A DNA stretch of 64,000 nucleotides, from contig CAVTRN010000001.1 in the NCBI GenBank assembly GCA_963737155.1, positions 1,472,001 to 1,536,000 on the forward strand. Direction: 5' to 3'. This document shows, in pieces, positions 22,188 through 40,100 of this stretch (the first letter of the stretch is position 1; each line of letters opens with the position of its first letter). Position numbers and translations under genes: made by a program. Below the pieces are notes generated by a model. It did no database searches, was not told the origin of the DNA, and saw nothing but the letters and a program-made list of their open reading frames with translations. The DNA comes from Nitrospirota bacterium. GTDB taxonomy: Bacteria; Nitrospirota; UBA9217.

Positions 22188-24171
22188 CCCAAGTTCCGCA
22201 ATTGCGACCGATTTTTAACTTTTTTGTGGGTCATTGAAGTGATAACTCCCTGATTGCATTACGCCTGATCTTTGAAAACTGCATGTAGTGCAGAAAACCC
22301 CCTTGCGAGGGGGAATACATCTTGGCATAATGGCGACATGTACTTGCGTCGTCAGAACAAAAAGAGCGGCGGTGTCACCTATGAAACGTGGACGCTTGTG
22401 GAGACAGTCCGAACAATCCGTGGTCCGCGTCAGCGAATCGTGGCGACAATCGGAAAGCTTCCTGGTTTAGACACTGAAGAGAAGGTCGGCTGGGAGGAGG
22501 TCGGAAGGATACTGAACGGCAAGCCCCGGTCTACCCTGTCTCTTTTTGAGAAAACACCGGAAGTTCCGGAGTGGGCCACCGTAAACCTTCGCGGTGTCCA
22601 GGTGGTACGGCTCCGGCACTTCGGAGACGTGTATCTTGGGCTTGTGCTCTGGCATCGCTTCGGGCTCATGGAGTTTTGCAGGGAACACATACCCGAAGGT
22701 CGTGAGGAGATCCCCTGGTCGGTCATGGCGACAGTGCTCACACTCGCCCGGTTCTGTGCCCCGTCGTCGGAGCTTCAGATAGCCGAATCGTGGTACGCAA
22801 AGACCGCCCTCGACGATCTTCTGGGCGTGTCCACCGACAAGATCAATGACGACCGGCTGTATCGTGCGCTTGACGCACTTCTTCCGCACAAAGACGCCTT
22901 GTGCCGACACTTGCAGAATCGCTACGGAGAGCTTTTCGGAACCACGTTCGATTTTCTCATCTACGATGTCACCTCAAGCTACTTTGAGGGCAGTGGAAAA
23001 CACAATACCAAGGCCAGACGAGGATACAGCCGAGATGGCCGTCCCGACTGCGTCCAAGTTTGTATCGGCCTCGTGACCAGCGCAGAGGGTCTACCTCTCG
23101 CCTACGAAGTCTTTGATGGCAACCGGCCTGACGTGACCACGGTCGAGGACATCATCGATATCATGGAGACCAGATATGGCAAGGCCCAGCGGGTGTGGGT
23201 CATGGACCGGGGCATGGTGAGCGAAGAGAACCTGGAAACCTTAAGAACAAAAGGCGCACACTACATCGTTGGCACCCCAAAGGCCATGCTCAAAAAGTTT
23301 GAGCGCGAGCTAACAGAAACCGGGTGGGAAGAGGTCCAGCCAGGAGTCGAGGTCAAGCTCTCCGCATCGCCGGAAGGAACGAACGAAACTTTTGTCTTGT
23401 GCCGATCCGAGGGCCGCAAAGAAAAGGAGCAGGCCATCCTGAACCGCTTCATCACCAGAATGGAGACGGGGCTTGCCAAGCTCAAGGAACAGGCGGAAAA
23501 AAGCAAAAGACCAGATCGGCAAAAGGTAGAGCGCAGGATCGGGCGTCTCCTTGAGCGAAACAGCCGTGCAGCCGCGCTTTTTGATGTTACGGTGGAAGAA
23601 CAACAAAGCGGAAATGGTCCGAGGCTCCTCGTCAAGATCAGAAAAAACGAAGACCGTGCTGAATGGGCGCTTCATACGAGTGGTAACTACTTGCTCCGGA
23701 CCAACTGGCAAAGCCGTGATCCGAAGGAACTCTGGAAGCTCTATATCCAGCTAACTCAGGCAGAGGACGCCTTCCGAACCACTAAGAGCGATCTGGGGCT
23801 GCGACCAATCTATCACCAGACCACAGAGCGTACCGATGCCCATATCCTGGTTTGCTTCCTCGCGTTAGCCATGTGGCGGACACTGCAACAATGGATGGAA
23901 TGCTCGGGCTTGGGCACTGCGCCGAGAAAACTTCTGGAAGAGCTACACGAGATCAGATCGCTTGACGTCTTACTTCCGGCAAAAGATAAAACGATCCGGC
24001 TGCGGACGGTATCCAAAGTACCGCAACCGCTAAGGATATTGCTTCAGCGGCTTGCTTTACCGATTCCGAATCAACCGAAAATAGTTAAAAATGTAGTGCA
24101 GAATTTAGCGGTTTAAGAAGATCAACTTGTTGATTTATCAAAACTTTGATTTTTTAACTGCGGAACTTGGG
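22188..24171 (+). mobile_element. IS1634-family insertion sequence
   Basis: Terminal IRs CCCAAGTTCCGCA / TGCGGAACTTGGG. TTAA flanks on both sides. Confidence 0.9.
22338..24116 (+). CDS. IS1634-family DDE transposase
   Basis: YDVTSSYFEG, GYSRDGRPD, VMDRG, EDAFRTTKSDLGLRPIYH. Confidence 0.93.
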   Translation: MYLRRQNKKSGGVTYETWTLVETVRTIRGPRQRIVATIGKLPGLDTEEKVGWEEVGRILNGKPRSTLSLFEKTPEVPEWATVNLRGVQVVRLRHFGDVYLGLVLWHRFGLMEFCREHIPEGREEIPWSVMATVLTLARFCAPSSELQIAESWYAKTALDDLLGVSTDKINDDRLYRALDALLPHKDALCRHLQNRYGELFGTTFDFLIYDVTSSYFEGSGKHNTKARRGYSRDGRPDCVQVCIGLVTSAEGLPLAYEVFDGNRPDVTTVEDIIDIMETRYGKAQRVWVMDRGMVSEENLETLRTKGAHYIVGTPKAMLKKFERELTETGWEEVQPGVEVKLSASPEGTNETFVLCRSEGRKEKEQAILNRFITRMETGLAKLKEQAEKSKRPDRQKVERRIGRLLERNSRAAALFDVTVEEQQSGNGPRLLVKIRKNEDRAEWALHTSGNYLLRTNWQSRDPKELWKLYIQLTQAEDAFRTTKSDLGLRPIYHQTTERTDAHILVCFLALAMWRTLQQWMECSGLGTAPRKLLEELHEIRSLDVLLPAKDKTIRLRTVSKVPQPLRILLQRLALPIPNQPKIVKNVVQNLAV

Positions 24172-24854: not shown

Positions 24855-25049
24855 ATGACTATAAAAAGACTTAATATAGTACAATTTGGTACCAATTCTT
24901 TGCAGAAGGGTGATAGGATAAAAATACCCGAGCCACTTCTTCAAACGCTTAATATCGTTCAAGGACAATTGATTCACATTTCTCTCGATGTAGAAAGTCA
25001 GCAAATTATATTGAAAGCGGTGAAAAAAAATGGGAAAAAGAATAAATAA
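24855..25049 (+). CDS. AbrB/MazE-like small DNA-binding protein
   Basis: RIKIPEPLLQTLNIVQGQLIHISLD swapped-hairpin pattern. Overlaps the R-M gene start. Confidence 0.6.
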   Translation: MTIKRLNIVQFGTNSLQKGDRIKIPEPLLQTLNIVQGQLIHISLDVESQQIILKAVKKNGKKNK

Positions 25050-27456
25050 CAAAAAAATAGCTACACACACTCCACGCACTACGGAAGTAGATGCATACCT
25101 TTTCATCAAAAACAATCTAAAGCTACGCGGGTGGGACATTCGCAATCCAGATCGTAATACGGGTGGTCAAGTTTACACTCAGAATGAATGCCTTGCCCAT
25201 CCCGCGATACATGCCGCACTTAATAAAGATCGACCTGAAAATATAGTTATGTTGACAGAAAAAAAGGTCTGGGTTATAGAAGCTAAAAAGTCGCACAAAC
25301 AAATTGACGATGCTGTTTCAGAGGCTGAGGAGTATGCTCGACGTATTAATGACAATGGACAACTGTCAACAAAGTTTATTAGTGGTGTTGCAGGCAACTC
25401 CGAAGATGGATTCATTATAAAAACCAAAATGCTTGTTGATGGTCGTTACATGCCCGTCAAGATAAATGACGTAGAGATTACGTCACTCTTGTCAAGGAAC
25501 GAATGCATAAAGCTGATAGACTCGGGATTTCCAAGCCTTGATAATCCACCTATTGATGAAAAACTTTTTCTGTCACGAGCCGACTATATCAACGAAGTTT
25601 TACACATTGGAGCCGTGAACCCGCATCAGAGAGCAAACGTAATGTCAGCGCTATTGTTATCAATGCTTGGCGATACGATGCCCAATATAGAGGAACGCCA
25701 GGCCTCGGTATTGATCGGAGATATCAACGGCCGCGTTAAAGCCGTTCTCAAAGCTCAAGGCAAGGAAGGGTTCTATGACTACATTAGGATCGCACTTCCT
25801 TCAACAGCAGATAACCATGTCAAGTTCCGAAAGGCCATGGTCGAAACTATTCAGGAGCTGAATAATCTTAACATCCGATCCGCGATGAATTCAGGAGAAG
25901 ATTGGCTTGGAGCTTTCTATGAGGTTTTCTTAAAATATGCAAACTGGGCTCAGGATCTGGGAATCGTCTTGACTCCGCGGCATATCACGACTTATATAGC
26001 TGATGTGATGGACATACTACCAACCGATATCATCTATGACCCCACATGCGGGACAGGTGGATTTCTAGTAGCGGCTTTTGATTCCATAAAGAAAAAGTCT
26101 ACACCTTCTCAGTTGAAAAAATTTAAAAATAATTCCGTTTTTGGAATAGAACAAGATGCAGGCGTGGCGGCGTTGGCCGTCGTAAATATGATATTTCGCG
26201 GTGATGGCAAAAACAATATTGTTGAAGGAAATTGTTTTTCAAAGTATCTCAAGCCAAGCAATTCATATTCTGCCAAGTACACCAAAAAAGAAAGCGCAAA
26301 TCCACCAGTTACAAAAGTAATGATGAATCCACCGTTTTCTCTGAAAGGCTCTAAACAAAAAGAGTTTGATTTTATTAACCACGCGCTTAAGCAGATGAAA
26401 GATAACAGTATATTGTTTTCCGTTTTGCCATACGCTGCAATGGTCAAGCCAGGAAGATATAAAACGTGGCGTCAGAACACGTTACTTCTAGAGCATACTC
26501 TGTTATCAGTTATCACCTTTCCTGGAGATCTTTTTTATCCTGTGGGTGTTCATAGTGTTGGAATATTTGTCAAAAAAGGTGTGCCACATCCTCAGGGACA
26601 ACAGATACTCTGGGTAAGGGCTTTGAATGATGGCCTTGTTAAATCTAAAGGCAAGAGACTACCTAGTAGTCGCGTTCCAAATGACCTTGAGGTCATAAGG
26701 GATACTTTGCGTCAATTTTTGCATAATCAGAGCATGAAGGTTTCGAGCCGCCAACAGTTCGTCAAAAAGGCTTCATTATCATCGGACGATGAACTTGTGG
26801 AACTGGTGCCAGAGGCTTATTTAAAGCAGGCGAAACCGGATTCCGACGCTATCTTAAAGAAAGTCGAGCAAGAAGAGCGCAACATCTTGGCTTACCTGAT
26901 AAAAAATAACAAAATCACTTTTTTTGGGAAAAGAATAGTTCCTGATCCAAAAAAACGAAATAGAAGCATTCGACGCTGGAAATCTTTTAACGTTACAGAT
27001 ATATTTGATGTCTCTCGAGGCGACTTCCATTCTATTGCCGCCTTGGACGCTGGCAAATATCCTACAATATCTCGTGTCAGTACAGATAACGGTTTGGTGG
27101 GGTTCTTTGATAAACCACAAGGTGCAACACTCTATAAACCTGGGACTATAACTATCTCAACAGTAACTGGCGATGCCTTTATTCAGCCAGTTTCATTTAT
27201 TGCTACAGACAATGTTTTACTTTGCGTCCCAAATAAAGAATACGAATCTCTTAGCTCAGCAAGCCTCTTGTTTATAAATGTTATGTTGAATGAAGTGAAA
27301 TGGCGGTATGGCTATGGCAGGCAACCTTATCTGGCGAAGTTTAAGATCACGGAAATCATGCTGCCCGTAGATAATGCGGGTGCGTTAGATGAAGATTATA
27401 TGGACAATGCTGTGAAATCGGTACCAATATGGACATTGATTAAGAATTTTTTTTAA
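25030..27456 (+). CDS. Type IIG/BcgI-like restriction-modification enzyme (endonuclease, N6-adenine MTase and specificity domain in one chain)
   Basis: PE...VIEAK nuclease motif, YDPTCGTGGFL (motif I), MNPPF (motif IV), C-terminal HsdS-like TRD (KWRYGYGR). Confidence 0.88.
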   Translation: MGKRINNKKIATHTPRTTEVDAYLFIKNNLKLRGWDIRNPDRNTGGQVYTQNECLAHPAIHAALNKDRPENIVMLTEKKVWVIEAKKSHKQIDDAVSEAEEYARRINDNGQLSTKFISGVAGNSEDGFIIKTKMLVDGRYMPVKINDVEITSLLSRNECIKLIDSGFPSLDNPPIDEKLFLSRADYINEVLHIGAVNPHQRANVMSALLLSMLGDTMPNIEERQASVLIGDINGRVKAVLKAQGKEGFYDYIRIALPSTADNHVKFRKAMVETIQELNNLNIRSAMNSGEDWLGAFYEVFLKYANWAQDLGIVLTPRHITTYIADVMDILPTDIIYDPTCGTGGFLVAAFDSIKKKSTPSQLKKFKNNSVFGIEQDAGVAALAVVNMIFRGDGKNNIVEGNCFSKYLKPSNSYSAKYTKKESANPPVTKVMMNPPFSLKGSKQKEFDFINHALKQMKDNSILFSVLPYAAMVKPGRYKTWRQNTLLLEHTLLSVITFPGDLFYPVGVHSVGIFVKKGVPHPQGQQILWVRALNDGLVKSKGKRLPSSRVPNDLEVIRDTLRQFLHNQSMKVSSRQQFVKKASLSSDDELVELVPEAYLKQAKPDSDAILKKVEQEERNILAYLIKNNKITFFGKRIVPDPKKRNRSIRRWKSFNVTDIFDVSRGDFHSIAALDAGKYPTISRVSTDNGLVGFFDKPQGATLYKPGTITISTVTGDAFIQPVSFIATDNVLLCVPNKEYESLSSASLLFINVMLNEVKWRYGYGRQPYLAKFKITEIMLPVDNAGALDEDYMDNAVKSVPIWTLIKNFF

Positions 27457-27759
27457 AGTCAACGATGTTAGTCGTACATACCTGCAGCCCATCGCGCGTT
27501 TCGCGGAACGCCGTTCGCAGAAATCAGCGGACATAGACTGAAACGTGGGATAGTCTCAACCTCCGCCGCTAGATGAAAGCAGCCATGCTTTTAACCAGCC
27601 TTTTAATATCCTTCCTCTTTCTTAAATCGAGAGTAACATCTATGAGGCGTGCCATATGCTGTTTGTGAACTTTGAGCCTTCTTTCTTTAAATATGTTATC
27701 GTCCCTTTCACTTCTTCAACCGTGACATTCTTTATTGAAATTATGGGGTTGGGTTCGCA

Positions 27760-28407
27760 CTAAAGTTCAGTTAACCCCTCGCGTATAGCAAACTTCGTGA
27801 GTTCTGCAATACTATGGATATTAAGTTTCTCCATAATCTGCTGTCGATGGAATTCGGCCGTTTTTATGCTTACCTGAAGCACCGATGCGATGTCTTTTGT
27901 TTTCTTGCCTTCGGACAATAGTTGCAAAACCTCGCGTTCCCTTGCCGTAAGGATAGATAATATTGAGAGTTCCTCTTTGGATATACGAGACACATAATCT
28001 TTAACAACAATATCCGCAATCTTCGGGCTAAGGTATGTACGGTTAGATGCCACGACCTGTATGGCATGGATGACTTCGTCAAAAGCACAGTCTTTCAAAA
28101 GGTACCCAGTAGCGCCGGCGTTGAGTATTTCAAGGATCACACGCCGCTCAGTATGCATTGAGAGTGCTATAATTTTTGAGTCGGCACTTGACGTTAGTAT
28201 CTGACGGGTAGCCTCTATACCGTTAAGCCCTGGCATGGAAATATCCATAATAACAATATCGGGTAACAATTTAGTTGTTAGCTGCACAGCAGTCCGCCCA
28301 TCCTCGGCTTCAGCTACCACGGTCATGTCCGGTTGTTCCTTAATTAATGACCGGAGACCTTCGCGCATCAACTTATGATCATCGGCAAGAACAATTTTAA
28401 TGCCCAT
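27760..28407 (-). CDS. NarL/FixJ-family response regulator (REC plus LuxR HTH)
   Basis: LADDH, MDISMP, GYLLK, LTAREREVLQLLSEG...HRQQIMEKL. Confidence 0.95.
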   Translation of the reverse strand: MGIKIVLADDHKLMREGLRSLIKEQPDMTVVAEAEDGRTAVQLTTKLLPDIVIMDISMPGLNGIEATRQILTSSADSKIIALSMHTERRVILEILNAGATGYLLKDCAFDEVIHAIQVVASNRTYLSPKIADIVVKDYVSRISKEELSILSILTAREREVLQLLSEGKKTKDIASVLQVSIKTAEFHRQQIMEKLNIHSIAELTKFAIREGLTEL

Positions 28408-28433
28408 TACGGATCCTCCTATTACCTGTTTAT

Positions 28434-30284
28434 TTATAATTTTATCGGTGATACCAGAATTACCTTCGTGCCAGCACCCGCTTCCGTTTCGATCTCACAA
28501 TACCCTCCCATCCGTTTCATGCGGTCGCGTATAGTGAACAGTCCAAACCCTTTATTCTTCCTGACAGCTGATACTGTGTCAAAACCGATTCCATTATCCG
28601 CAACGGTAATCATAATATTGTTGTCTGTTCTAGTGAAAGACATCATAACGGTATCTGCTTTCGAATGTTTGACGACGTTTACGATCAACTCTCTAACACA
28701 TCTGAAAAGAAGATAACGAGCATTGTCATCTATTGGTTTGGGCTGGCCATCATCCTCGACTATGACTTGTATACCGTAAGTCCTTTCGAACCCTTCCGCG
28801 AGATCTTCAACAGCTTCCTTAAGACCAAGTTCAACCAAAACAGGGGGGCTGAGCTCGACCGTCAATGACCTCGTGTGTTGAATTGTCTGTTCAATAATTT
28901 TACGTAGTTCCTCCACTTGCCCTATTGATTCAGAAGACGAGAGAGATCTCCGAAGCATGCCCAGTTTGAAATTCAGCGCCAACAGATTTTGACCCACAAA
29001 ATCATGCAGGTCTGCAGCTATTAGATTGCGCTCCCGTTCTTCGATCCGCGATTCAAAGGATAACATTTCGGATGTTACAGAATGGAGCTCCTTTTGATAA
29101 GTGCGAATTTGATCCTCCATTCCTTTTCGTGCAGTAACATCACGGGCGATAATTAATACTGCCTGGAGGCCAGTGAAAACAAACGGGGATACGGACATTT
29201 CTACATCCAATGTTGTCCCATCTAATTTGAGAAGCTTTGCTTGGAGAAGAGGAGGAATTGTGCCAAATTCCTGGACCTGTTGAATGCGCTTCCATATATA
29301 GTCTCTGTCTTTCTCGTTTATATGGTTCAACATTTGCTGCCCCAAGAGCTGAGAAGAATCTAGTGCTCCCAGAAGCTTAGCTCCCGATGTGTTTATAAAC
29401 ATTAAATTATCGTCATGCTGCACGTAGATGCCATCCGGCGAGAGTTCGACTAGTCTGCGATAGCGTTCTTCACTATCGCGCAACGAATTTTCCGCATGCC
29501 CACGCGCGACAATCATTGCATTGAAGGCAGCAGAGAGGTTTCCAACCTCATCAGTTGTTTCAACGGGCAACGGGTTGATTGGCAAACCTTTTTCAAAAGC
29601 TTTTACATCTTCGGTAAGTGTTTTCAATGGGCTTGTAACCTTTTTTACTAGCAAGTGGATAATGGTGATACTGGCGATGATAAAAATAACCATTATGACG
29701 ACATTTTGTTCAACGACGGAGGCAATCTCGTGTCGATAGGTATCCTTACTCAGTGTAATGCTAACGTATCCTATTATTTTTGCTGGTTGAGCCGCCGTAG
29801 GAGCATTTAAATAAAGCGTTTCGTCTACTTGTGCCGCAGGTTGTAATACGACTGGCTTGACGAACTCGAAAGTATCCTGTGTCTCCACGATGCTTAGCGA
29901 ACCAGTAAAATCATGCTTGTCTACAGAGTTATCGCCTGTTGTAGCCAGACTTGAAACGGAGGATGTTTTACGCTTGCTGTAGAGAACTTTCGCATTAGAG
30001 TTGTAAATTGTTATGGATAAGACATCTTGCAGACCGATAACGTCTGTTGCGATATCTTTCAACATTTCCTCATTTTCCGCAAAAACACCCACTGTTGCTC
30101 TTTTCGAGAGAAGTCTCACAAGGATTTCCCCCCGGTCCCTCAGGTACTTCTTTTCTTTATTGCCTTCTCGGACGACTGAAAACAGGGTTTGTGCAGTCAA
30201 TACGAAAATAATTACGATAATGACTGAGAATACAATTCGGAAGCCCAGGTTTTCTTTAAAAGTGCGATAAACTTTCTTATTCAA
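28434..30284 (-). CDS. Membrane sensor histidine kinase (periplasmic domain, HAMP, PAS, HisKA_3, HATPase)
   Basis: Two TMs, DEVGNLSAAFNAM, PAS, ERERNLIAADLHD, DNGIGF, GFGL. Confidence 0.93.
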   Translation of the reverse strand: MNKKVYRTFKENLGFRIVFSVIIVIIFVLTAQTLFSVVREGNKEKKYLRDRGEILVRLLSKRATVGVFAENEEMLKDIATDVIGLQDVLSITIYNSNAKVLYSKRKTSSVSSLATTGDNSVDKHDFTGSLSIVETQDTFEFVKPVVLQPAAQVDETLYLNAPTAAQPAKIIGYVSITLSKDTYRHEIASVVEQNVVIMVIFIIASITIIHLLVKKVTSPLKTLTEDVKAFEKGLPINPLPVETTDEVGNLSAAFNAMIVARGHAENSLRDSEERYRRLVELSPDGIYVQHDDNLMFINTSGAKLLGALDSSQLLGQQMLNHINEKDRDYIWKRIQQVQEFGTIPPLLQAKLLKLDGTTLDVEMSVSPFVFTGLQAVLIIARDVTARKGMEDQIRTYQKELHSVTSEMLSFESRIEERERNLIAADLHDFVGQNLLALNFKLGMLRRSLSSSESIGQVEELRKIIEQTIQHTRSLTVELSPPVLVELGLKEAVEDLAEGFERTYGIQVIVEDDGQPKPIDDNARYLLFRCVRELIVNVVKHSKADTVMMSFTRTDNNIMITVADNGIGFDTVSAVRKNKGFGLFTIRDRMKRMGGYCEIETEAGAGTKVILVSPIKL

Positions 30285-31212
30285 CGATATTCCTCTGGGT
30301 CAATAAGTCGTCAGCTATCTTTAATCCCATTTTGGCCGCCACCTTGATATTAATAGAAAGAGTTGACTTTCGTGCATAAACGCGAATAGCACTCGAATTG
30401 CCCGCTAATATCTTGTTAGCAATTTCAGAGGCTTGTACGCCCATGTCATAAGGATCAATATCCAAGGCAGCTATGGCCCCCATTTCGACATACTTCCTTG
30501 AAAAAGAAAATATCGGGATGTGATACTGGAAAGAAAAATTAAGCAGATAGTCGACCATCTCCGGCGTAACAACTGTTGGATCCGGCAACATCCAGTAAAC
30601 GTCTACCTTCCCCCTTAATCCGCTCAATACGCTTGGTATTTTAGAGGGGTCGCTGACAGCACTTGTTATAAGTTCTAGCCCTGCCGCATGAGCAACTTTT
30701 GATGCCGCGTCGACAAAAGAGGCTGTATTTCGTGGATCATATAGAAGTCCAATTCTTTGTGCCTTGGGGAACACTTTCATGATGGTGGCTATGTAGGTTT
30801 CTGGAGAGATGTCCATGCTCACGCCCGAAATGTTCGAATTTAAAGGGAGGGGTGTTTCCCATGGCACAACCATAGTATAAATGATCGGGAAATTCCTAAT
30901 CGCCTTGACTTTATTGAATGACGCCGTTCCAATAGCCATGATGATTTTGGGTGAGTCATGAATAACTGCTTCTATTCCTTCTCCATCCTGAAGCTTTACT
31001 TCGGGCACTTTGCAGCCACAAGCATCCTCGAAACCGCGAAGAACATCCCTGTAAGGTTTCAGATCGGCGGTTTTAACAGCGATTACTTCGCTCGCAAAGG
31101 TTTGCATGGAGTAACCTGCAGTAAAAGTCGCGAAAGCTGCCAGGGCAAGAAGAATAGCCGTTATTCGAGATAATTTATGTGGGGATAAGGTAGCCATGAA
31201 TGGTGGGTACAA
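30277..31212 (-). CDS. ABC-type periplasmic substrate-binding protein with no cognate permease
   Basis: Signal peptide, RIGLLYDP, WMLPD, GAIAAL, INIKVAAKMGL. Confidence 0.85.
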   Translation of the reverse strand: MYPPFMATLSPHKLSRITAILLALAAFATFTAGYSMQTFASEVIAVKTADLKPYRDVLRGFEDACGCKVPEVKLQDGEGIEAVIHDSPKIIMAIGTASFNKVKAIRNFPIIYTMVVPWETPLPLNSNISGVSMDISPETYIATIMKVFPKAQRIGLLYDPRNTASFVDAASKVAHAAGLELITSAVSDPSKIPSVLSGLRGKVDVYWMLPDPTVVTPEMVDYLLNFSFQYHIPIFSFSRKYVEMGAIAALDIDPYDMGVQASEIANKILAGNSSAIRVYARKSTLSINIKVAAKMGLKIADDLLTQRNIVE

Positions 31213-31225
31213 TGCGGTTTAATAA

Positions 31226-32524
31226 TTACAAATTGTACTTAATATCTTGAGCGACGAGCTGCCTGAGGGTTTTTTCGAAATATTCCTTTTGACAAATGAC
31301 GCCGTTCATCTCTCCAGCGTGGATTAGTTTCATATATCTGCATCCGCCGAAACAGAGAGGAAGAAAGCTGCACTCGAGACATTCTTCGTTTTTCCAGGCA
31401 TCGATTCCGTGTGACTTATTATAGTCAATCAGACCGTCAGTAATATTGCCAATGCAGCAATTCTTCCTGCCGATCATCCCCGGACACTTGTAAAGGGTGC
31501 CATCGTAATTCACGACAAGGCTGTCAATCAGCTCTACCATGCATGGTATTGGCATAACTTTTTGAGTACCATATCCTCTTCGCAGTACTTCTTCCCGGAG
31601 GAAAAGGGTAGCTTCGGCTATCCAAGGTTCATTAGGTGAATCGCAGCCATCGTGAAAATCAGGTGGAGCAAATTCGTTGCTCTCGCTAATGACAGGATCG
31701 AACTTGATGACAGAAATCTTATCAGGAGTGAGCCCGTTCTCTGACAAATAATCGAGAAGAAGAGGAAACTCGCGATAATGATTCTGCGTATAATTGCCGC
31801 CTATCTGAATGTGGGTCATAGCACATACTTTTTTAATATTGCTCAATATCAGATCAAATGAACCACGGCCCGATTTGAAAGGCCTATATCTGTCGTGGAT
31901 ATATTTTGGACCATCAAGTGTAACTTTCGCACCTTTCAAACCGAGTGGCGTCAGTATTTTAACTACTTCCGTTGTCAGCAACGTACCGTTTGTCACAAGG
32001 GTAAAGCTATATTTTACGGCTTTCTGCTCCGCATAGGCTCGCATTTTATGCGATATATCAATAATGGTTTCAAGACTTAAAAGCGGTTCGCCGCCATAAA
32101 AAACGATTTTTATCTCCTCCTTTTTTGACAAATCATTCCTTTTTATCGCAAAATCTACGAACTGAGTAGCTGTATCCTTTGATAAATGGAACTTGCCTTT
32201 CCTTTTGCCTTCAAAGCAATATTTGCATCTGAGGTTGCATTCAAGGTTCAAGACTACAATATATTTGGCTGATCGGTCCACATTATTCATTTCATAGAAG
32301 AAGGAAAGCATCTCTTGCTGTTCTTCTTCCAAACTATGCACGAGGAATCCGAGGTTATAAAGCGTTTCCTTGTCTTCCTCCGTCAGCCTGCCTTTGTCAA
32401 TATCTTCTATCAGGCTGGAAGGTATAAGTCCAGCGGCCGCATTTTTAGTAGAAAAAATCAAAACGGAATCTTTGTCAGCGGCGGACGAGTACAGTTTAGT
32501 ATATTTCGATAGTTTTGAAGGCAT
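31226..32524 (-). CDS. Radical SAM/SPASM peptide maturase (geopeptide-maturase-like)
   Basis: CNLRCKYC, FYGGEPLL, TNGTLL. SPASM C...YKC...CLEC...CFGGC...C. N-terminal RRE-like extension (LSKYTKLY...LIFST). Likely start ATG 32524. Confidence 0.9.
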   Translation of the reverse strand: MPSKLSKYTKLYSSAADKDSVLIFSTKNAAAGLIPSSLIEDIDKGRLTEEDKETLYNLGFLVHSLEEEQQEMLSFFYEMNNVDRSAKYIVVLNLECNLRCKYCFEGKRKGKFHLSKDTATQFVDFAIKRNDLSKKEEIKIVFYGGEPLLSLETIIDISHKMRAYAEQKAVKYSFTLVTNGTLLTTEVVKILTPLGLKGAKVTLDGPKYIHDRYRPFKSGRGSFDLILSNIKKVCAMTHIQIGGNYTQNHYREFPLLLDYLSENGLTPDKISVIKFDPVISESNEFAPPDFHDGCDSPNEPWIAEATLFLREEVLRRGYGTQKVMPIPCMVELIDSLVVNYDGTLYKCPGMIGRKNCCIGNITDGLIDYNKSHGIDAWKNEECLECSFLPLCFGGCRYMKLIHAGEMNGVICQKEYFEKTLRQLVAQDIKYNL

Positions 32525-32600
32525 ATGGTTTATAATGGGAACAAAAATATATCTTTGATAAGCGAGGGGGAGAGATAGGAAATATCCCCCCCAATGTTTA

Positions 32601-32702
32601 TTAAAAAATGTCAAGAGGAATCAATGCTCCATAACAACACCCTGCATTCAGCATGTCTTTCTTTTCGACACCCTTTTTTACGACTATAATATTCTTTTTC
32701 AA
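32601..32702 (-). CDS. RiPP precursor peptide MKKNIIVVKKGVEKKDMLNAGCCYGALIPLDIF (geopeptide-like), missing from the ORF track
   Basis: SD AAAGGGGGTGA, then TTG start, 33 codons and TAA. GVE leader motif and CC core. Lies between the TonB receptor and the rSAM gene. Confidence 0.85.
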   Translation of the reverse strand: MKKNIIVVKKGVEKKDMLNAGCCYGALIPLDIF

Positions 32703-34361
32703 GAGTCTCACCCCCTTTCTTGTAATTTATCATCCCTCACATGAGGATATTGAAGCTAGAATTTATATCGTATCCCAGCTTCCAACCAACGCCCTGGATT
32801 ATTGTATACATTAAAAAGATACTGATTGCTATCGAATATATTATGGATATCAAAGAGAGCTTCTACAGACTGATCTTTATTTAAATAGAGATTTTTAATA
32901 ACATGTAAATCAACAATGAAAGAATCATATTCTCCTTGATTCGATGGACTTGCATTCCAGTAGATATAATGTCCTTGCAATCGAACCTTGAGGGATTGCT
33001 CAACGTCATATTGGAGGCCTATGTCATAGGTCCTCTGCGGGTCATTCGGTATAGCCTGGCCAGTAAGCTGGTCCTTCGCCGTCATAAAAGCCGCGCCCGC
33101 GCTAAGTGAAGTATGGTAGACAGGCAGAGTCTTCATTTCTAATTCCATCCCTTGTATTCGTTCTTGTCCGCTGTTTTCTGCAATAAATGTTGAGTTTGAA
33201 AGCTGGTCCGTTACAAGTGCGTCTTTTATATCATGCCTGAATAGGGAAAGTTTAAGCCAAACATACGGCAAATCCGTCGACTCCATACCCATTTGATAAG
33301 ACCACACCTGCTCCATCTTCAAGTCAGGGTTTGCTACGTGTAATAAACCGTCTCCATACGTTGTCGCAAGGGGGGGAATATTGAAACCGCGGGCGGAAGA
33401 GGCGCGTAACAGGGTGTTGTCCGTGATTTTGTAAGTTATGCCGAGGCTTGGGCTTGTGAAGTTCCCGTTTGTATTTGTTACATCATAACGAATTCCCGGA
33501 GTTATGGACAGTTTATCTATTGATATGGTGTCGTTAATAAAATAAGCATCTCTTTTTATTCCTTGCTCGCCGTCGGCAATCGCATTTGACACTAATTTTC
33601 TGGAATCCAGGTCTGAGCCCAGAACAACGTTATTGTATTGCTGTTTCCAGATTAATTTTGCACTCGTACCGTACCCCGTATCCACGTAGCGGTCCTGTGA
33701 AAGCTCCGAGCCGGTGCTTAACTGATCGTCATTAAAAACGAAATCCTGTCGCGATGACCAAGCAGACAAATCGAATTCGGTATCACTACTGACCATTGAC
33801 TTCATTGACAAAGTTGTAAATAAGGTTTCAATGTCATTATTAACCGCGAGGTCGAAACTAGGGAGTTCGACAACACCACGCGACAGGTTGTTATAGTTCA
33901 TCGTAAATATTAAGCTTGTGTCTTTTGTTAAATCATAATTCAGTTTCGCATAAGCGTTATTCCCATCATAGCTATTATTGGGCCTGAACCCATCGGTTTG
34001 CAATCTGCCAGCGGTCACATAGTATCCAAATTGGTGCTGTTCGCCTAAGGTTTCTATTCTTAGGTCCTGCGTATTTCTCTCGCCATAGGTAGCCGATATT
34101 GTTCCGTTGACGCCGGTCCCGCTGCCCGACTTTGTGATAATATTTATAACACCGCCAAGCGCAGAGCCCCACGCAGAGGAGGCTGGACCCTTAACTATTT
34201 CTATTCTCTCGATGTTCTGAACTGGAAGCATACCGATGTCAACGACATTATCACTCAGATCATTCAGTGGAACACCATCCATGAATACGGCAACATGACT
34301 CTCGTCCGAGTCCTGAATTTGTGCTTCAGCACTACTGCCTGGACCTCCTGTTAAAAACACT

Positions 34362-35885
34362 CAGGTTATACTGTTTTTAGTTGAAATTGAAAAGAGTGGC
34401 TCCCCCGTGGCATAATCCACGGTAGAGAGAGAAAAAAGAAAGGAGCCACTCAATGAAGGATACCACAAGGAAGAGAAAAAAGGCAATACGAGGAATTGAA
34501 GAGGCATACGGAAGGCGGGAGATCATCGAACAGATGTATTGTGTCTTCGCAAAAGGGAAACAGGGTTTTGATGAATGCATGAAGGAAATGGGCAGAATGA
34601 TGGCAGAGACGATCATGTACATCGAGCGGGAGGAGATTGCCGGCCCCGACTACCAGCCTAACAGTCCCGATCTGCGGAAGTGGGCTAGCCAGGGCGGTTC
34701 CGTCTATATCGGAGATCAGAAGATCCCGGTGACCCACCCTCGGCTTCGAGGTCCGGCGGGTGAGATTGTACTGCAGAGCTATCAGAAGATGAAAAAACCG
34801 GAAGTCTTCGCAGAAGAATTGCTTGGAAAGGTGCTTCGGGGCATATCATGCCGGAAGTATGCGGAGACAGTTGTAGATACGGCACGAGCATTTGGAGTGT
34901 CCGCCAGCACGGTATCGAGCCATATCGTCGCGGCAACAGCAAAACAGCTTCAGGAGTTTAAGGAACGGTCACTCACGTCATTCGTTCCCTTTGCGGTCTT
35001 TTTAGACACTGTTCACCGCGGCGGAGAGGCATTCATCGTGGCGCTGGGGCTTGATATTGCCGGAAAGAAGCAGACATTGGGGTTCTGGCAGGGGGCGACG
35101 GAGAACCATGAACTGTGTGAAGAGCTGTTTTCTGATATAGAGCGGCGAGGTCTGATACTTTCACGACGAATCATCTGGGTTACCGATGGCGGCAAGGGCG
35201 TAATCAAGGCACTCCGGGATCGCTTCGGTAAGAAACTCATCCATCAGCGGTGCACGATCCACAAGGACCGGAATATACAGCATCATTTGCCGAAGAAATA
35301 CCGGAAAGGCGCACACTGGAGGTTCCGGACAGCCCTGGAGCAGAATAATTACGCGGACGCTCGTCAGATGCTTCTGGACATGGAGAAATGGCTTCGGGGC
35401 ATTAATGAGTCGGCGGCTGATTCGCTCATGGAAGCGATAGAAGACATTCTCACCCTTCATCGATTGAAGGTCCCCGCTCTCTTGAGGAAGACGTTGCATT
35501 CTACCAATCCTATCGAGAGCATGTTTTCCACGGTGAGAAAAGCAGAAGGCAATATAAAGCGCTACCGCGACAGCAAGATGATGCAGCGCTGGCTCGCTTC
35601 TGTCCTCTTATATGCTGAACAAGGATTCAGAAAGATCAAGGGCCACGCCTTCATCGCGGACGTGATGAAACGGATCGAAGCGGAAGAATTAAATGACCTA
35701 ACAGTCAAAGAGGCTGCGTAAAGGGGGATGGTTAGGTATGGCTCGGCCTCAGAAAACTCACATATGGCGATCCTACGAATCCGATTTTATAAACAGCGAT
35801 GATTTACACCGTTGAACCGATAAAAATACTTTAGCCGAAGGGAACGGGCCACTCAGATAATTTCAACTAAAAGCTTGACCTCGTC
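34362..35885 (+). mobile_element. IS256-family insertion sequence
   Basis: 8-bp TSD AAAACACT (34354-34361 and 35886-35893). Imperfect IRs sharing TTTTAGTTGAAATT. Confidence 0.92.
34453..35721 (+). CDS. IS256-family transposase
   Basis: FLD, VTDGGKG, QRCTIHKDRN, STNPIES. Confidence 0.93.
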   Translation: MKDTTRKRKKAIRGIEEAYGRREIIEQMYCVFAKGKQGFDECMKEMGRMMAETIMYIEREEIAGPDYQPNSPDLRKWASQGGSVYIGDQKIPVTHPRLRGPAGEIVLQSYQKMKKPEVFAEELLGKVLRGISCRKYAETVVDTARAFGVSASTVSSHIVAATAKQLQEFKERSLTSFVPFAVFLDTVHRGGEAFIVALGLDIAGKKQTLGFWQGATENHELCEELFSDIERRGLILSRRIIWVTDGGKGVIKALRDRFGKKLIHQRCTIHKDRNIQHHLPKKYRKGAHWRFRTALEQNNYADARQMLLDMEKWLRGINESAADSLMEAIEDILTLHRLKVPALLRKTLHSTNPIESMFSTVRKAEGNIKRYRDSKMMQRWLASVLLYAEQGFRKIKGHAFIADVMKRIEAEELNDLTVKEAA

Positions 35886-36303
35886 AAAACACTTGCACGC
35901 CTGTGACAGTATTTAACACGTCTGCGACAGTATGAGCGTTCATATTTTTGATATCTTCTGCTGTAATAACGGTCACATTTTCCGCGGTCTGTGCTAGAGA
36001 TGTTTTACCGCGTGTCGGCGATTCTACATCAAGATCCTCTTCTTTATAATAAATCAGGAGTTCCTTTTTGTCTTCATCGTTTTCAGCATATACAATAGAT
36101 GAGAACATAAATAAGAAACTAGCGAAGGCTAGAAGGACGCTGATGAGATAGAAGAAGGCTTTCATAACGTTTATCCGTAAAGGAGTGTCAACTGAGCATA
36201 TCGTTGAAGGAAAGGCATTAATAATTCAGAGAATCTAACAATAATATTTGATCAGTCGATGTTATAAAACAGTGAAATATTATGTTTTTAACATTTAAGT
36301 GCG

Positions 36304-36332
36304 AGTATATTCAGCGCTTCAAATATTGTCAA
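36304..36332 (-). promoter_or_regulatory. Near-consensus sigma70 promoter of the TonB-peptide-rSAM-TCS operon
   Basis: Minus strand TTGACA-17nt-TATACT. Confidence 0.75.
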
Positions 36333-36384
36333 GATTTATCGCACGAGCCGGGTTATTTCACGCGGAAAATATTGCAATCAAAGC

Positions 36385-36449
36385 AAGGTATTTGGAAGCT
36401 AAAACTAGGGAATCCCTTGGTTGATTTTATAGTTCATGATTAAAATACT
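36385..36449 (+). promoter_or_regulatory. Regulon box F
   Basis: AAGGTATTTGGAAGCTAAAACTAGGGAATCCCTTGG-TTGATT. Confidence 0.55.
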
Positions 36450-36590
36450 TGTCGCTACTTGAAATTAAAATGGAACTAAATCATAAAACTTCCAAATTCG
36501 GTAAACCAAAAATAAGAAAATGTAGTATGTCGTGACTCTAAATAACAGCCTTATTCGCTCAAAATATATTTGGACACAATCGTATCATTT

Positions 36591-36656
36591 TTAGGAATTT
36601 AGAAGCTTAAAACTAGGGAAACCCCGATTGCTATTTATAATTTAAAATATTAATCT
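36591..36656 (+). promoter_or_regulatory. Regulon box G with promoter upstream of RHS1
   Basis: TTAGGAATTTAGAAGCTTAAAACTAGGGAAACCCCGA-TTGCTA-17nt-TAATCT. Confidence 0.7.
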
Positions 36657-37157
36657 GCTTTTGCTTAAAAATATTCAGATGATTGCGACGACATTTGCAG
36701 AAATTAGAATGATAAAAATACAGCATGGAATTACAGGTAATTGCTGCTAGATGCATTGTAAGCGGATTATCTGCTCAATGATGCTGCAGCTCCAATGTAG
36801 CTCCAATGTTAATTTGTAATTTAACAGAAAGAATTTAACAAGAGGCAACCGGCACCAGTGAAATTGCTACACAGAAGTGCATCATTCCCCCAATCACGCG
36901 TTTAAAATTGAGTAGTGTAGCATAATCTTTCTACAGTGATTTTCGTTCTGATCGAAGTAAAGAGCCTGATATTCTCGAACGCTGGGGACAATTCACTTTC
37001 GTGGCGAACCATATTAAATTCATTTAGCTCAATTTACCTTAAACAGAACCTTTTTGCACGCATTCCGAGCGATCTTTGCGTGATACTGATTTCTTGGCAT
37101 TATGCAATTTAGGTGACGGGATATTCCCAATCTTACAAGCTTCTTTGGTGGAGGTTT

Positions 37158-40100
37158 ATGATGGATCAGCAGAGTAGAAATCATCGCAGATTACCCGTAC
37201 TGGAACATTGCTCATTAGTGAAGAGACTCTATCTTATGATCTCAGGATTGATCGTCGCAATGAGCTTATGGACAATGATTGCAATGATATTGCCTTCTGA
37301 ATCTTATGCAATCTGTTTGCAAGGATCTGGAGCGACTGCAAATCAAATAGTTTTTTGTGATACTCAAACGGAAGCTTTGGCTGCAGCAAGTGGCTATTGC
37401 AGTAACTCGGGCTCAAATTGTTGCACTTTTGCAGTTGGAGAAACTTATTCTAACTCTTATTGTGGTCCCTTTGGGTGCGGCACCGCAGGGGGGGAGGTAG
37501 ACATTAACAATTGCGGCGTAACTGCTTATCCCATTATCTTCGGGAACTGCGACGAAGGCGCGACTCAGTCCTGCACAGAAAACTATCTTAACGGGGTACA
37601 GTGCAACGGCACACAGACCTGCTTGCCTAACGCCCAGTATGGCTATTGCGCACTCTTTGATCCGTCGTGCTTACCATGTTCTGATGGTCAATCACAGAAC
37701 TGTGCTTATACCTGTCCTTCGGGTATACAGATCACCGGCACACAGGCCTGCGAGAACCAACTGTTCGGCTCCTGTTATGCTGATCCATTAATATGTCAGC
37801 AAGCAGTATGCAATGATGGCCAGACATTGCCTTGCAACACTTACGACATTGCGGGGAATCAGTGCTACGGTGCTCAGACATGCAGTGGCGGCCAGTGGGG
37901 ATACTGCCAGCCTGGCTCAACGTGCGCAACATGCCTCGGCAGCAGTAGTCAGTTATGCATTGCAACAGATATATTGGGGAATCAATGCAACGGTTCTGAG
38001 ACATGCAGTGGCAGCCAGTGGGGACCCTGCCTGCCAACCGGCCCGTCGTGCGCAGTATGCTCACCCAATCAGACCCAGACATGTTCATGTCCCATTGGCG
38101 GGGGAACTCAAACATGCTCTTCTTCTGGACAATGGAGTGCATGCTCATGCATAGTTGCATGCCAAACTGGTGATTGCGGTAATACCAGTAATGGTCCCCA
38201 GAGTAATACCACATGCATCAATTCATCTGCAAATCTAAAAAGTGGCAATCTCACTCATAATCAAGATGTAATTACAGCGCCCAAGAGCTTGCCCTTTTCA
38301 TTAACCTACAATAGCAATGACATTACTGTAGGACCGTTAGGACGTGGCTGGACCGATACGTATAATGTGTTCATTTCCGCTGCAACGAATACTTCTGGAA
38401 GTATCTCGTCACTTATTTTGACAGAAAATAGCGGTAACAAAATAATGTTCTCTCCTTCCAGCAGCCTATATTCCCCCAGTGCAGGCAGCGGGGACACATC
38501 AACCATAGTTGTCAATGCCGACGGGACTTATACCCGCACTCTAAAAGACGGGACCCTGCAAACATTCAATACTTCCGGCATCCTCAATACAATCAGTGAC
38601 CGGAATAACAACACCACAACGTTGTCCTACAGCGGCGGAAATCTGGTTACTATAACCGATTCTACAGGAAGATCGCTCAGTATTGCAGCAGCAAGCGGCC
38701 AGATAGCATCGATAACTGATCCTTCTGGCCAGACCTACAAATTTTCTTATAATGGCAATTTACTGATGGCAGTCTCTGATCCTTCGGGCGATATATGGAA
38801 CTACACCTATGATGCTAACGGCAGAATGCTCACCAAGACAGATCCGGCAGGTTTCCAGTCGATCTACGCCTATGATGTCAACGGAAATCTTATAAGCACA
38901 ACAGACCCCAATGGAATGGTAAAAACCATGACGTATAACCAAGCCTTGAATGAGGCACAGTTTGTGGAAATAGACGGCGGGGTTTGGTATCAGTTTTATG
39001 ATCCTAATCTAAACCTGCCGACACAGACAATGGCGGTGGATCCGAACGATAACGAATATATAACCAACTACACTTATGACAGCAACGGCAACATGCTCAC
39101 TAAAACGGACCCGGATGGGGACGTTACTACTTACACTTATGACGCAAAGAGCAATGTAACTTCGATAATAAATGCTCTTGGCCAAAAAACAATCTATACG
39201 TACAATAACTTCTCCGAGGTCACGTCAATGATAGACCCCTTGGGGAACAACACCACGTACACTTACGACGCCAATGGGAATCTTTTATCCACAACTGATC
39301 CATTGGGAGTTGTCACCACATATCAGTATGACACCAAAGGCAATGAAACAAGAGCTACCAATGCCTTAAATCATACCACCAAACTAACTTACGATAAATA
39401 CAATAACATCGCATCAGTCACCGATCCGGCGGGCGACAAATCCACGTTCACGTATACTATAAACGGCAAAATGACTAGCCTGACAGATGCCAACGGCAAT
39501 ACAACAACATTAACGTATAATAACCTAAATCAACTGATTCAGGTCGTTGATTCGGAAGGAAACACGACACTATATGCTTATGACAAGGATGGCAACCGGA
39601 CAATGCGGGCCGATGCAAACGGCAATGCAACGTATTTCGCGTATAACTTTAAAAGACAGCCCACGATGGGGAAGAATGCGTTAGGTGGCATAACGAGCCT
39701 CAACTACACAGGAACTGGTTGCGAATTCTGTGGTGGGAGTAGGTACCAACTTGCTGCCCTTATAGACGCGAATGGGAATACCACATCCTACTCGTATGAT
39801 ATACTCGGGAGGCTCATCAACCAAACCGATTCTCTCGGAAATGGAATAATGTATTCCTATGATCCCGCGGGCAACCTGACCACCGTCAATAAAGCCGATG
39901 GAGCCACTATACACTATGCCTATGACGCAACTGGCAGACTGTTGACAAAATCCTATCCTGACGGCTCGACAACTTCCTTTACTTATGATGCCAAGGGTAA
40001 CATCCTCACAGCCACAAATAACAATATTTCCTATACCTTCACCTACGATGCAGACGGAAGAGTGGCGAGCGTAGCAGACCATTTTAATGATCTGGTGAAT

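Follow-up and report, generated by a model that had tools for sequence, protein, structure and literature searches.

A probable geopeptide cassette with an interrupted TonB receptor gene in a Nitrospirota genome: gene content, conservation and possible roles of the peptide

Gene content of the cassette

The present analysis concerns a stretch of 64,000 nucleotides from a Nitrospirota bacterium (positions 1,472,001 to 1,536,000 of contig CAVTRN010000001.1, assembly GCA_963737155.1), which is called the window here and from whose first letter all positions are counted. On its minus strand, between 27760 and 36332, lie six co-oriented genes for a TonB-dependent receptor, a small Cys-Cys peptide, a radical S-adenosylmethionine (SAM)/SPASM enzyme, a periplasmic binding protein, a sensor histidine kinase and a response regulator, together with a TTGACA-17-TATACT promoter-like site (Table 1). 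These genes had previously been proposed to form a signalling operon built around a peptide that is made on ribosomes and modified after translation (RiPP). Very probably, they represent a copy of the geopeptide RiPP cassette, which consists of a receptor, a Cys-Cys precursor, a CteB-like maturase, an orphan PF04392 protein, an sCache_4 kinase and a NarL-class regulator. Within this curated family, this copy is notable for a colinear six-gene layout, a divergent precursor and inactivation by an insertion sequence (IS).

Both the six-gene arrangement and the near-consensus site in front of it were confirmed as predicted; the site matches the consensus at 11 of 12 positions and is the top promoter-like site within 27400-36700. 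From the regulator gene to the receptor gene, the intergenic gaps are 26, -8, 13, 76 and 53 nt, the negative value being the 8-nt overlap of the kinase and binding-protein genes, which had also been read correctly. The tight packing that had been described holds for most gaps but not for the receptor gene, which is interrupted by a 1524-bp IS256-family element.

Against NCBIfam TIGR04280, the family named 'geopeptide radical SAM maturase' (cut-off 400), the maturase scores 567.4 bits over profile positions 2-427 of 428, and its gene is the only one in the genome that passes this family. The start was set at the ATG at 32524, where the family profile begins; the longest open reading frame (ORF) reaches 32614. 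The CxxxCxxC motif (C96, C100 and C103) and the seven SPASM cysteines (C328, C347, C382, C385, C391, C395 and C411) are invariant in 27 of 27 aligned maturases. By sequence, the best solved-structure match is CteB (E 1.9e-35), aligned from residue 25, within the N-terminal domain, and CteB chains are also the best fold matches of a structure model of the maturase (predicted local distance difference test, pLDDT, 92.4), at full length, E 4e-21 and a template modelling score of 0.69. In this model, strands at residues 9-13, 20-25 and 30-35 are followed by helices at 36-44, 49-57 and 65-73, which supports a predicted CteB-like N-terminus with the peptide-recognition layout of a RiPP recognition element (RRE). 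Because Pfam names no family in residues 1-95, even at E 10, the RRE-like assignment rests on the CteB alignment and the structure model. The TIGR04280 match and the CteB-like sequence and fold bear out the earlier description of the enzyme as radical SAM/SPASM with an N-terminal RRE.

CteB, the SCIFF maturase (PDB 5WGG and 5WHY), shares with the window enzyme an N-terminal peptide-binding domain, a radical SAM core and a seven-cysteine SPASM domain. However, the two enzymes are only about 20% identical, and the window substrate has two adjacent cysteines, whereas SCIFF has six scattered ones. By analogy with CteB, thioether cross-links in the Cys-Cys region would be the most likely product of the window maturase. 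No receptor, binding protein or kinase is known from SCIFF loci.

The precursor gene is shorter than the 40-residue ORF threshold and was found by reading and translating the spacer. A Shine-Dalgarno-like GGGGGTGA precedes its TTG start, and the encoded peptide has a conserved Lys-rich leader (I-I-V-V-K-K-G) and a Cys-Cys pair 10 residues ahead of its C-terminus. In the geopeptide system (TIGR04229 and TIGR04280, the latter a 'hypothetical equivalog'), the maturase is of the same family and a Cys-Cys precursor lies directly upstream; in the window, such a precursor lies 76 nt upstream of the maturase gene, as that system requires. Against TIGR04229, 'geopeptide', the window peptide scores 13.5 bits (E 0.048), below the cut-off of 30. 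When eight cassette peptides were scanned with this profile, those labelled Geotalea (40.5 bits) and Trichlorobacter (35.1 bits) passed, one from Desulfuromonadaceae reached 27.1 bits, and five gave no hit, including all three from the phylum sample described below, which are of the window's type. The low score of the window peptide and the lack of hits for the three similar ones indicate a divergent precursor branch that escapes the curated TIGR04229, and the window peptide can be regarded, from its sequence and position, as a divergent geopeptide. A literature search, with supplementary files outside its scope, found no publication on the geopeptide family or TIGR04280. Nothing relevant was found either in the literature combining SPASM/radical SAM RiPPs, TonB-dependent receptors and Geobacter, or on an operon of receptor, binding protein, kinase and Cache domain. 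An attenuator or terminator hairpin in the spacer between the peptide and maturase genes was considered and rejected, the fold being no better than that of shuffles (-15.9 kcal/mol, z -0.63).

The binding protein is encoded by the single PF04392 gene of the genome, and no ORF with ABC ATPase motifs was found in the 64-kb window, in agreement with the earlier statement that it has no ABC partner. Its nearest solved structures are 3LKV, 3LFT and 6HNI. The adjoining kinase carries a periplasmic sCache_4 domain at about residues 38-192, between two membrane spans, and the gene arrangement supports the view that the binding protein is an orphan coupled to this kinase. When residues 41-311 of the binding protein were paired with residues 38-192 of the kinase in a docking prediction, a score of 0.52 was obtained, against 0.01 for the best of three controls; contact agreement between the runs was at least 73%, with a partner pLDDT of no less than 72. 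Of 80 solved complexes, 58 reached the docking mark, as did 2 of 110 mismatched pairs, and among those that reached it with scores up to 0.60 were just 7 of the 80 solved complexes and both passing mismatches; since custom alignments were used, these counts apply only approximately. The model lends weak support to a docking of the binding protein on the periplasmic domain of the kinase. The response regulator scores below all NCBIfam equivalog cut-offs (MctR 188 of 300, NarL 144 of 250).

The receptor gene, which had been taken to be intact, is in fact split into two fragments by an element that had been missed. The element is bordered by two copies of the 8-bp direct repeat AAAACACT, and an 8-bp target duplication is typical of the IS256 family. 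A perfect 14-nt inverted repeat (34375-34388 and 35859-35872) lies 13 nt inside each element end, and the outermost 13 nt of the two ends match poorly by eye. The transposase, encoded opposite to the operon, scores 206.4 bits against NF033543 (cut-off 150) and 4.9e-35 against Pfam Transposase_mut. Copies of this 1524-bp unit, all 100% identical, stand at 11 places in the genome and suggest a recent burst of transposition there.

The 5' fragment of the receptor gene runs for 93 codons to a stop created at the insertion point. Computational removal of the element and one repeat copy restored an open receptor frame of 625 codons, which aligns end to end with an intact orthologue of 623 residues at 61% identity. 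No receptor paralogue was found in this genome at E 1e-10. Since the other five cassette genes appear intact beside their orthologues, the insertion is likely to be recent. The element puts 1.5 kb between the promoter and these five genes and carries a terminator-like site on the operon strand (35811-35797). With the receptor split, the import arm is predicted to be dead in this genome, which would probably leave the proposed peptide circuit silent or uncoupled here, and this copy of the cassette is a poor choice for experiments. Genes split into two ORFs were also seen in other cassettes of the comparison below, namely L047 (binding protein and kinase), L052, L059 and L136 (receptor) and L075 (kinase), which may reflect common cassette decay or assembly errors.

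Table 1. Coordinates of the cassette genes, the inserted element and the promoter region (window positions)
Feature	Position	Strand	Basis or remark
Response regulator, receiver and GerE/LuxR-type helix-turn-helix (NarL/FixJ class)	27760-28407	-	Pfam, NCBIfam
Sensor histidine kinase, 616 residues, membrane span-sCache_4-membrane span-HAMP-PAS-HisKA_3-HATPase	28434-30284	-	Pfam domains
Periplasmic binding protein, PF04392 (ABC_sub_bind), signal peptide, no ABC partner	30277-31212	-	Pfam
Radical SAM/SPASM peptide maturase, N-terminal RRE-like domain (predicted)	31226-32524	-	TIGR04280, 567.4 bits
Precursor peptide, 33 codons, TTG start	32601-32702	-	Spacer reading and translation
TonB-dependent receptor, 3' fragment (rest of plug, beta-barrel)	32756-34361	-	PF00593 1.3e-40; Plug positions 40-107
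Target-site duplication AAAACACT, 8 bp, left copy	34354-34361		Direct repeat at element edge
IS256-family insertion sequence, 1524 bp	34362-35885	+	Genome copies, direct repeat, transposase profile
Transposase, 422 residues	34453-35721	+	NF033543, Pfam Transposase_mut
TonB-dependent receptor, 5' fragment (signal peptide, TonB-box region, plug start)	35884-36165	-	Plug PF07715 positions 3-37
Target-site duplication AAAACACT, 8 bp, right copy	35886-35893		Direct repeat at element edge
Sigma-70-like promoter TTGACA-17-TATACT	36304-36332	-	Located about 140 nt before the start codon of the receptor gene
21-nt box, possible regulator site (inside promoter spacer)	36308-36328	-	15 of 21 positions shared with the other box (71% identity)
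21-nt box, possible regulator site	36354-36374	-	Related to the box above

Conservation of the neighbourhood and co-variation of its genes

A maturase above the TIGR04280 cut-off was detected in 43 of 401 genomes sampled from the phylum of the window, and the neighbourhood was counted in 34 cassettes whose flanks were fetched from this sample. The receptor adjoins the maturase in 32 of them (one of the two exceptions is cut by a contig end), and a Cys-Cys peptide lies between the two in 31; in L056, L070 and L072, no Cys-Cys peptide was found, a second look included. The PF04392 binding protein is present in 28 of the 34 cassettes and is adjoined by a kinase in 27 of these. After omission of two split kinases and one cut by a contig end, the remaining 24 were aligned with that of the window, giving 25 sequences with HATPase_c in 25, HAMP in 24 and sCache_4 in 15 (E 0.001). 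Their transmitter types vary, with HisKA_3 in 8, HisKA in 17 and an extra receiver in 9.

Among named genome records, the closest maturase relatives were found in metagenome-assembled genomes labelled Nitrospirota or Thermodesulfovibrionales, followed at 38-50% identity by maturases labelled Geobacteraceae, Desulfuromonadales, Desulfobacterales and Desulfobulbales. Loci from these records were counted if the maturase identity was at least 38% and at least 5 kb was available on both sides, with genes sought within 7 kb; two of the 28 loci repeat loci already counted. The receptor and the binding protein were both present in all 28, which mostly belong to Desulfobacterota-labelled groups. A kinase was found by BLAST in 19, which is a lower bound, and HAMP kinases were found by Pfam in two of three loci examined further. 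Rare co-occurrence had been named beforehand as the outcome that would speak against the predicted operon, and the partners were instead found in 32, 31 and 28 of the 34 cassettes and in 28 of the 28 loci.

The gene order is not constant. In the named records, the sensing genes are often divergent from the receptor-peptide-maturase unit; this is the case in most records of the Geobacteraceae/Desulfuromonadales type, whereas the window holds one colinear operon with a NarL-class pair. Because the divergent orders keep the same partners, the association survives rearrangement. In addition, genomes with two cassettes (L047/L059, L044/L052 and L063/L071) hold a separate receptor for each, with different peptide cores, which fits receptor-specific reception of the peptide, whether it serves signalling or scavenging.

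The precursors themselves are of more than one kind. Upstream of nine maturase genes (L045, L048, L054, L064, L066, L067, L071, L108 and L110), a second precursor class was observed, in which a Lys/Ala/Thr-repeat leader of 45-90 residues (KKKAxKKK-like) replaces the short leader, while the Cys-Cys pair and a short tail are kept. In L052, two tandem precursor genes lie upstream of the maturase gene; their leaders are almost the same, and their tails behind the Cys-Cys pair differ slightly. Cys-Cys peptides with a similar leader were also seen at five loci with distant maturases (L154, L155, L158, L166 and L173; 25-32% identity), labelled Planctomycetota, Omnitrophota and Auribacterota. A TonB receptor is present at four of the five; at the fifth, L154, only 392 bp are available upstream of the maturase.

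Co-variation among the parts was examined with partial Mantel tests (n 41 and 29), which are crude and of low power. The 81 loci were reduced to 41 by dropping those without a recognised peptide or a near-full-length match of the binding protein or receptor, and two loci with identical maturases were also left out. All cassette parts correlate through shared descent, with receptor distances correlating with maturase distances at r 0.87 and binding-protein distances at 0.74. With the maturase controlled, the receptor and the binding protein showed a partial r of 0.07. In contrast, the binding protein and the periplasmic domain of the kinase showed a partial r of 0.72 (p 0.0005, n 29) under the same control, a value that could arise from tight linkage alone. 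Thus, the cassette splits into two units, one of receptor, peptide and maturase and the other of binding protein and kinase.

Re-uptake and sensing of the peptide, and competing explanations

The best single reading of the cassette, to which we give somewhat less than even confidence, is that the mature geopeptide is taken up again by the TonB receptor and sensed in the periplasm. From the observed gene content, family membership, neighbourhood and co-variation of binding protein and kinase, we infer the following chemistry, release, uptake, binding and output. The maturase would bind the conserved leader through its N-terminal RRE-like domain and cross-link the Cys-Cys region, most likely by thioether bonds as in its nearest solved relative. 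The mature peptide would then leave the cell and, being too large for porins, re-enter the periplasm through the dedicated TonB receptor. There, the binding protein might capture it and dock on the periplasmic domain of the kinase, which would phosphorylate the NarL-class regulator. Re-uptake followed by sensing is favoured because only ligands too big to pass through porins require a TonB receptor, because the receptor stays tied to the peptide-maturase pair, and because the binding protein is coupled to a kinase, with no inner-membrane transporter after it.

Two known systems resemble parts of this scheme. In LuxP/LuxQ, a periplasmic binding protein presents its ligand to a sensor kinase, and the window likewise has a transporter-less binding protein adjoining a kinase with a periplasmic sensor domain. 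LuxP and LuxQ belong to families other than PF04392 and sCache_4, the families found in the window, and the window adds a dedicated TonB receptor upstream, which implies a ligand too large for porins. Clostridial ranthipeptides derived from SCIFF have been reported to act in quorum sensing (Chen et al. 2020, as summarised in PMC8102284), and they share with the present case a peptide modified by a CteB-type enzyme that would take part in cell-cell regulation. They differ in that the hosts are Gram-positive and that no receptor is named in the available part of that summary, whereas the window encodes a full candidate reception chain.

A wider proposal can be built on this reading, and it is more doubtful: possibly, double-membraned anaerobes use the geopeptide cassette for peptide signalling, in which a thioether RiPP is released, re-imported and read by an orphan PF04392 protein on a Cache-type kinase. 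Signalling by peptides is usual in Gram-positive bacteria and rare in those with an outer membrane, a barrier that peptides pass poorly. If true, the cassette would represent a new class of cell-cell signalling by peptides for bacteria of the Gram-negative type and the first energised outer-membrane importer to act purely as an entry gate for a self-made signal, and genomes with two cassettes, each with its own receptor and core, would run separate channels. Kept together across at least two phyla and in several gene orders, and encoding peptide, maturase, importer, binding protein and kinase, the cassette is among the clearest genomic candidates for the sensing of a peptide that crosses the outer membrane, or else for a new thiol/thioether scavenging peptide of anaerobes. 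With the counts given above, what was a database label becomes a proposal that has defined parts and can be tested.

A number of observations weigh against re-uptake and sensing. Besides the broken receptor gene in this genome, the five loci with distant maturases have no binding protein or kinase detectable by BLAST. Solved PF04392 proteins bind free Trp, Tyr or Phe rather than peptides, according to the available part of one report (PMC10443332). PF04392 genes occur in 266 of the 401 sampled genomes, far above the frequency of the maturase. Twenty PF04392 loci were examined, 19 from maturase-free genomes and one a second locus in a maturase-bearing genome; 12 of them match the window's binding protein at 27-32% identity, of which 10 have an adjoining kinase and 9 a full-length receptor. 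A maturase is absent from all 20. The existence of such receptor-binding protein-kinase modules without a maturase indicates that the module is generic and can sense other ligands. Moreover, with the maturase controlled, none of the partners compared co-varied with the peptide core: the partial r was -0.004 for the binding protein (p 0.52, n 41), 0.058 for the receptor (p 0.12) and -0.05 for the sensor domain of the kinase (p 0.70, n 29). What the core does track is the maturase, with a value of 0.33 when the binding protein is controlled for. The co-variation that had been anticipated was therefore found between the binding protein and the kinase but not between the peptide core and either of them, and there is no positive sign of the binding protein reading the core. 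Further points are that the 34 cassettes have no conserved exporter or leader protease (apart from the four known families, together with their shadow ORFs, none recurs in over 6), and that a regulator site for feedback on the operon promoter was not established by box comparisons with seven orthologues and a genome pattern. The flanks of the window's cassette likewise contain no exporter or protease, so that the absence of both, noted originally for the window, extends to the whole set.

The main rival, which we consider rather improbable, is that the Cys-Cys peptide is metallophore-like or otherwise linked to nutrition, capturing a scarce ligand (for example, a thiophilic metal) and returning with it through the TonB receptor, so that acquisition would be primary and sensing secondary. 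The binding protein-kinase pair would then report the return of the peptide and adjust expression, as siderophore systems do. This would agree with a receptor-peptide-maturase triad that is the most conserved core, found also without a detectable binding protein or kinase (L154, L155, L158, L166 and L173), with the tighter tracking of the maturase by the receptor (r 0.87) than by the binding protein (0.74), and with two invariant adjacent cysteines that could bind metal. Methanobactin provides a precedent: its operons encode a TonB transporter (MbnT), a periplasmic binding protein (MbnE) and the enzymes MbnB/C, and thus resemble the window in joining a TonB transporter and a periplasmic binding protein to RiPP genes, while in the window the binding protein is coupled to a kinase. 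A methanobactin-type system as such was rejected, as the only modifying enzyme of the cassette is of the radical SAM/SPASM type and not of the MbnB/MbnC type. RiPP clusters with their own TonB transporter also exist, as shown by the Itf cluster of Bacteroides thetaiotaomicron, which, in the available part of its description (PMC11002830), combines a precursor, a modifying enzyme and the TonB-dependent transporter ItfF; it differs in having an exporter/peptidase, ItfE, of which no counterpart is conserved in the 34 geopeptide cassettes. On the other hand, a scavenging role is disfavoured by the lack of a conserved inner-membrane transporter in the 34 cassettes and of an ABC ATPase in the window, no metal-related gene recurs in the 34 neighbourhoods, and CteB spends Cys sulfur on thioether bonds, which would remove the thiols.

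Ranked third, and the less probable of these two alternatives, is the possibility that the cue read by receptor, binding protein, kinase and regulator is an unrelated one from outside, such as an aromatic amino acid or a compound of another organism, and that they merely control the production of a peptide with an antimicrobial, intracellular or other role that involves no re-uptake. Several of the results above would be expected in that case, namely the occurrence of the three-part sensing module without peptide or maturase, the aromatic amino acid ligands of solved PF04392 proteins (PMC10443332, available part), the lack of co-variation of the core with the binding protein or sensor domain, and the division of the cassette into two evolutionary units. 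However, the receptor stays with the peptide and maturase (32 of 34 cassettes and all 28 loci), also in cases where binding protein and kinase are encoded on the opposite strand or were not found, and genomes with two cassettes hold a separate receptor for each, with different cores. Finally, the six genes might be unrelated and merely adjoin one another in a variable, mobile-element-rich region. This would suit the flanks, where an RHS protein, an IS4-type transposase and a restriction-modification methylase are encoded, and promoter-like sites that are no commoner across the region than in shuffles (22 against 17.9 +/- 4.8). It receives almost no weight, since the family set recurs, in several gene orders, in all 28 further loci, labelled as groups of a second phylum, and in 28 to 32 of the 34 cassettes, which excludes a chance juxtaposition.

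Promoter region and flanking genes

The two related 21-nt boxes near the promoter could possibly serve as sites for the regulator. No counterpart of them was found upstream of the receptor genes in seven orthologous NarL-type cassettes, and a search of the genome with a loose pattern, which fitted one of the two boxes, gave no match beyond this promoter region. For expression, no RNA run was found; a single metagenome DNA run was found, with a 0.14 share of words. In three other NarL-type cassettes (L058, L059 and L060), a perfect palindrome, TACCCGAACGGGTA, lies upstream of the receptor gene and is a candidate regulator site. A promoter-like site, TTGACAAT...TATACT, similar to that of the window, is also common to the upstream regions of L059 and L060.

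The cassette appears to sit in a variable stretch rich in mobile elements. On one side, all on the plus strand, a DDE (IS4-type) transposase gene (22272-24116) lies beside a gene (25030-27456) for an 808-residue fusion of an N6 DNA methylase domain and a type I specificity domain. Beyond the promoter, also on the plus strand, a 1483-residue RHS-repeat protein with a Cys-rich N-terminal part is encoded at 37113-41564 and followed by small ORFs, which together resemble a polymorphic-toxin locus.

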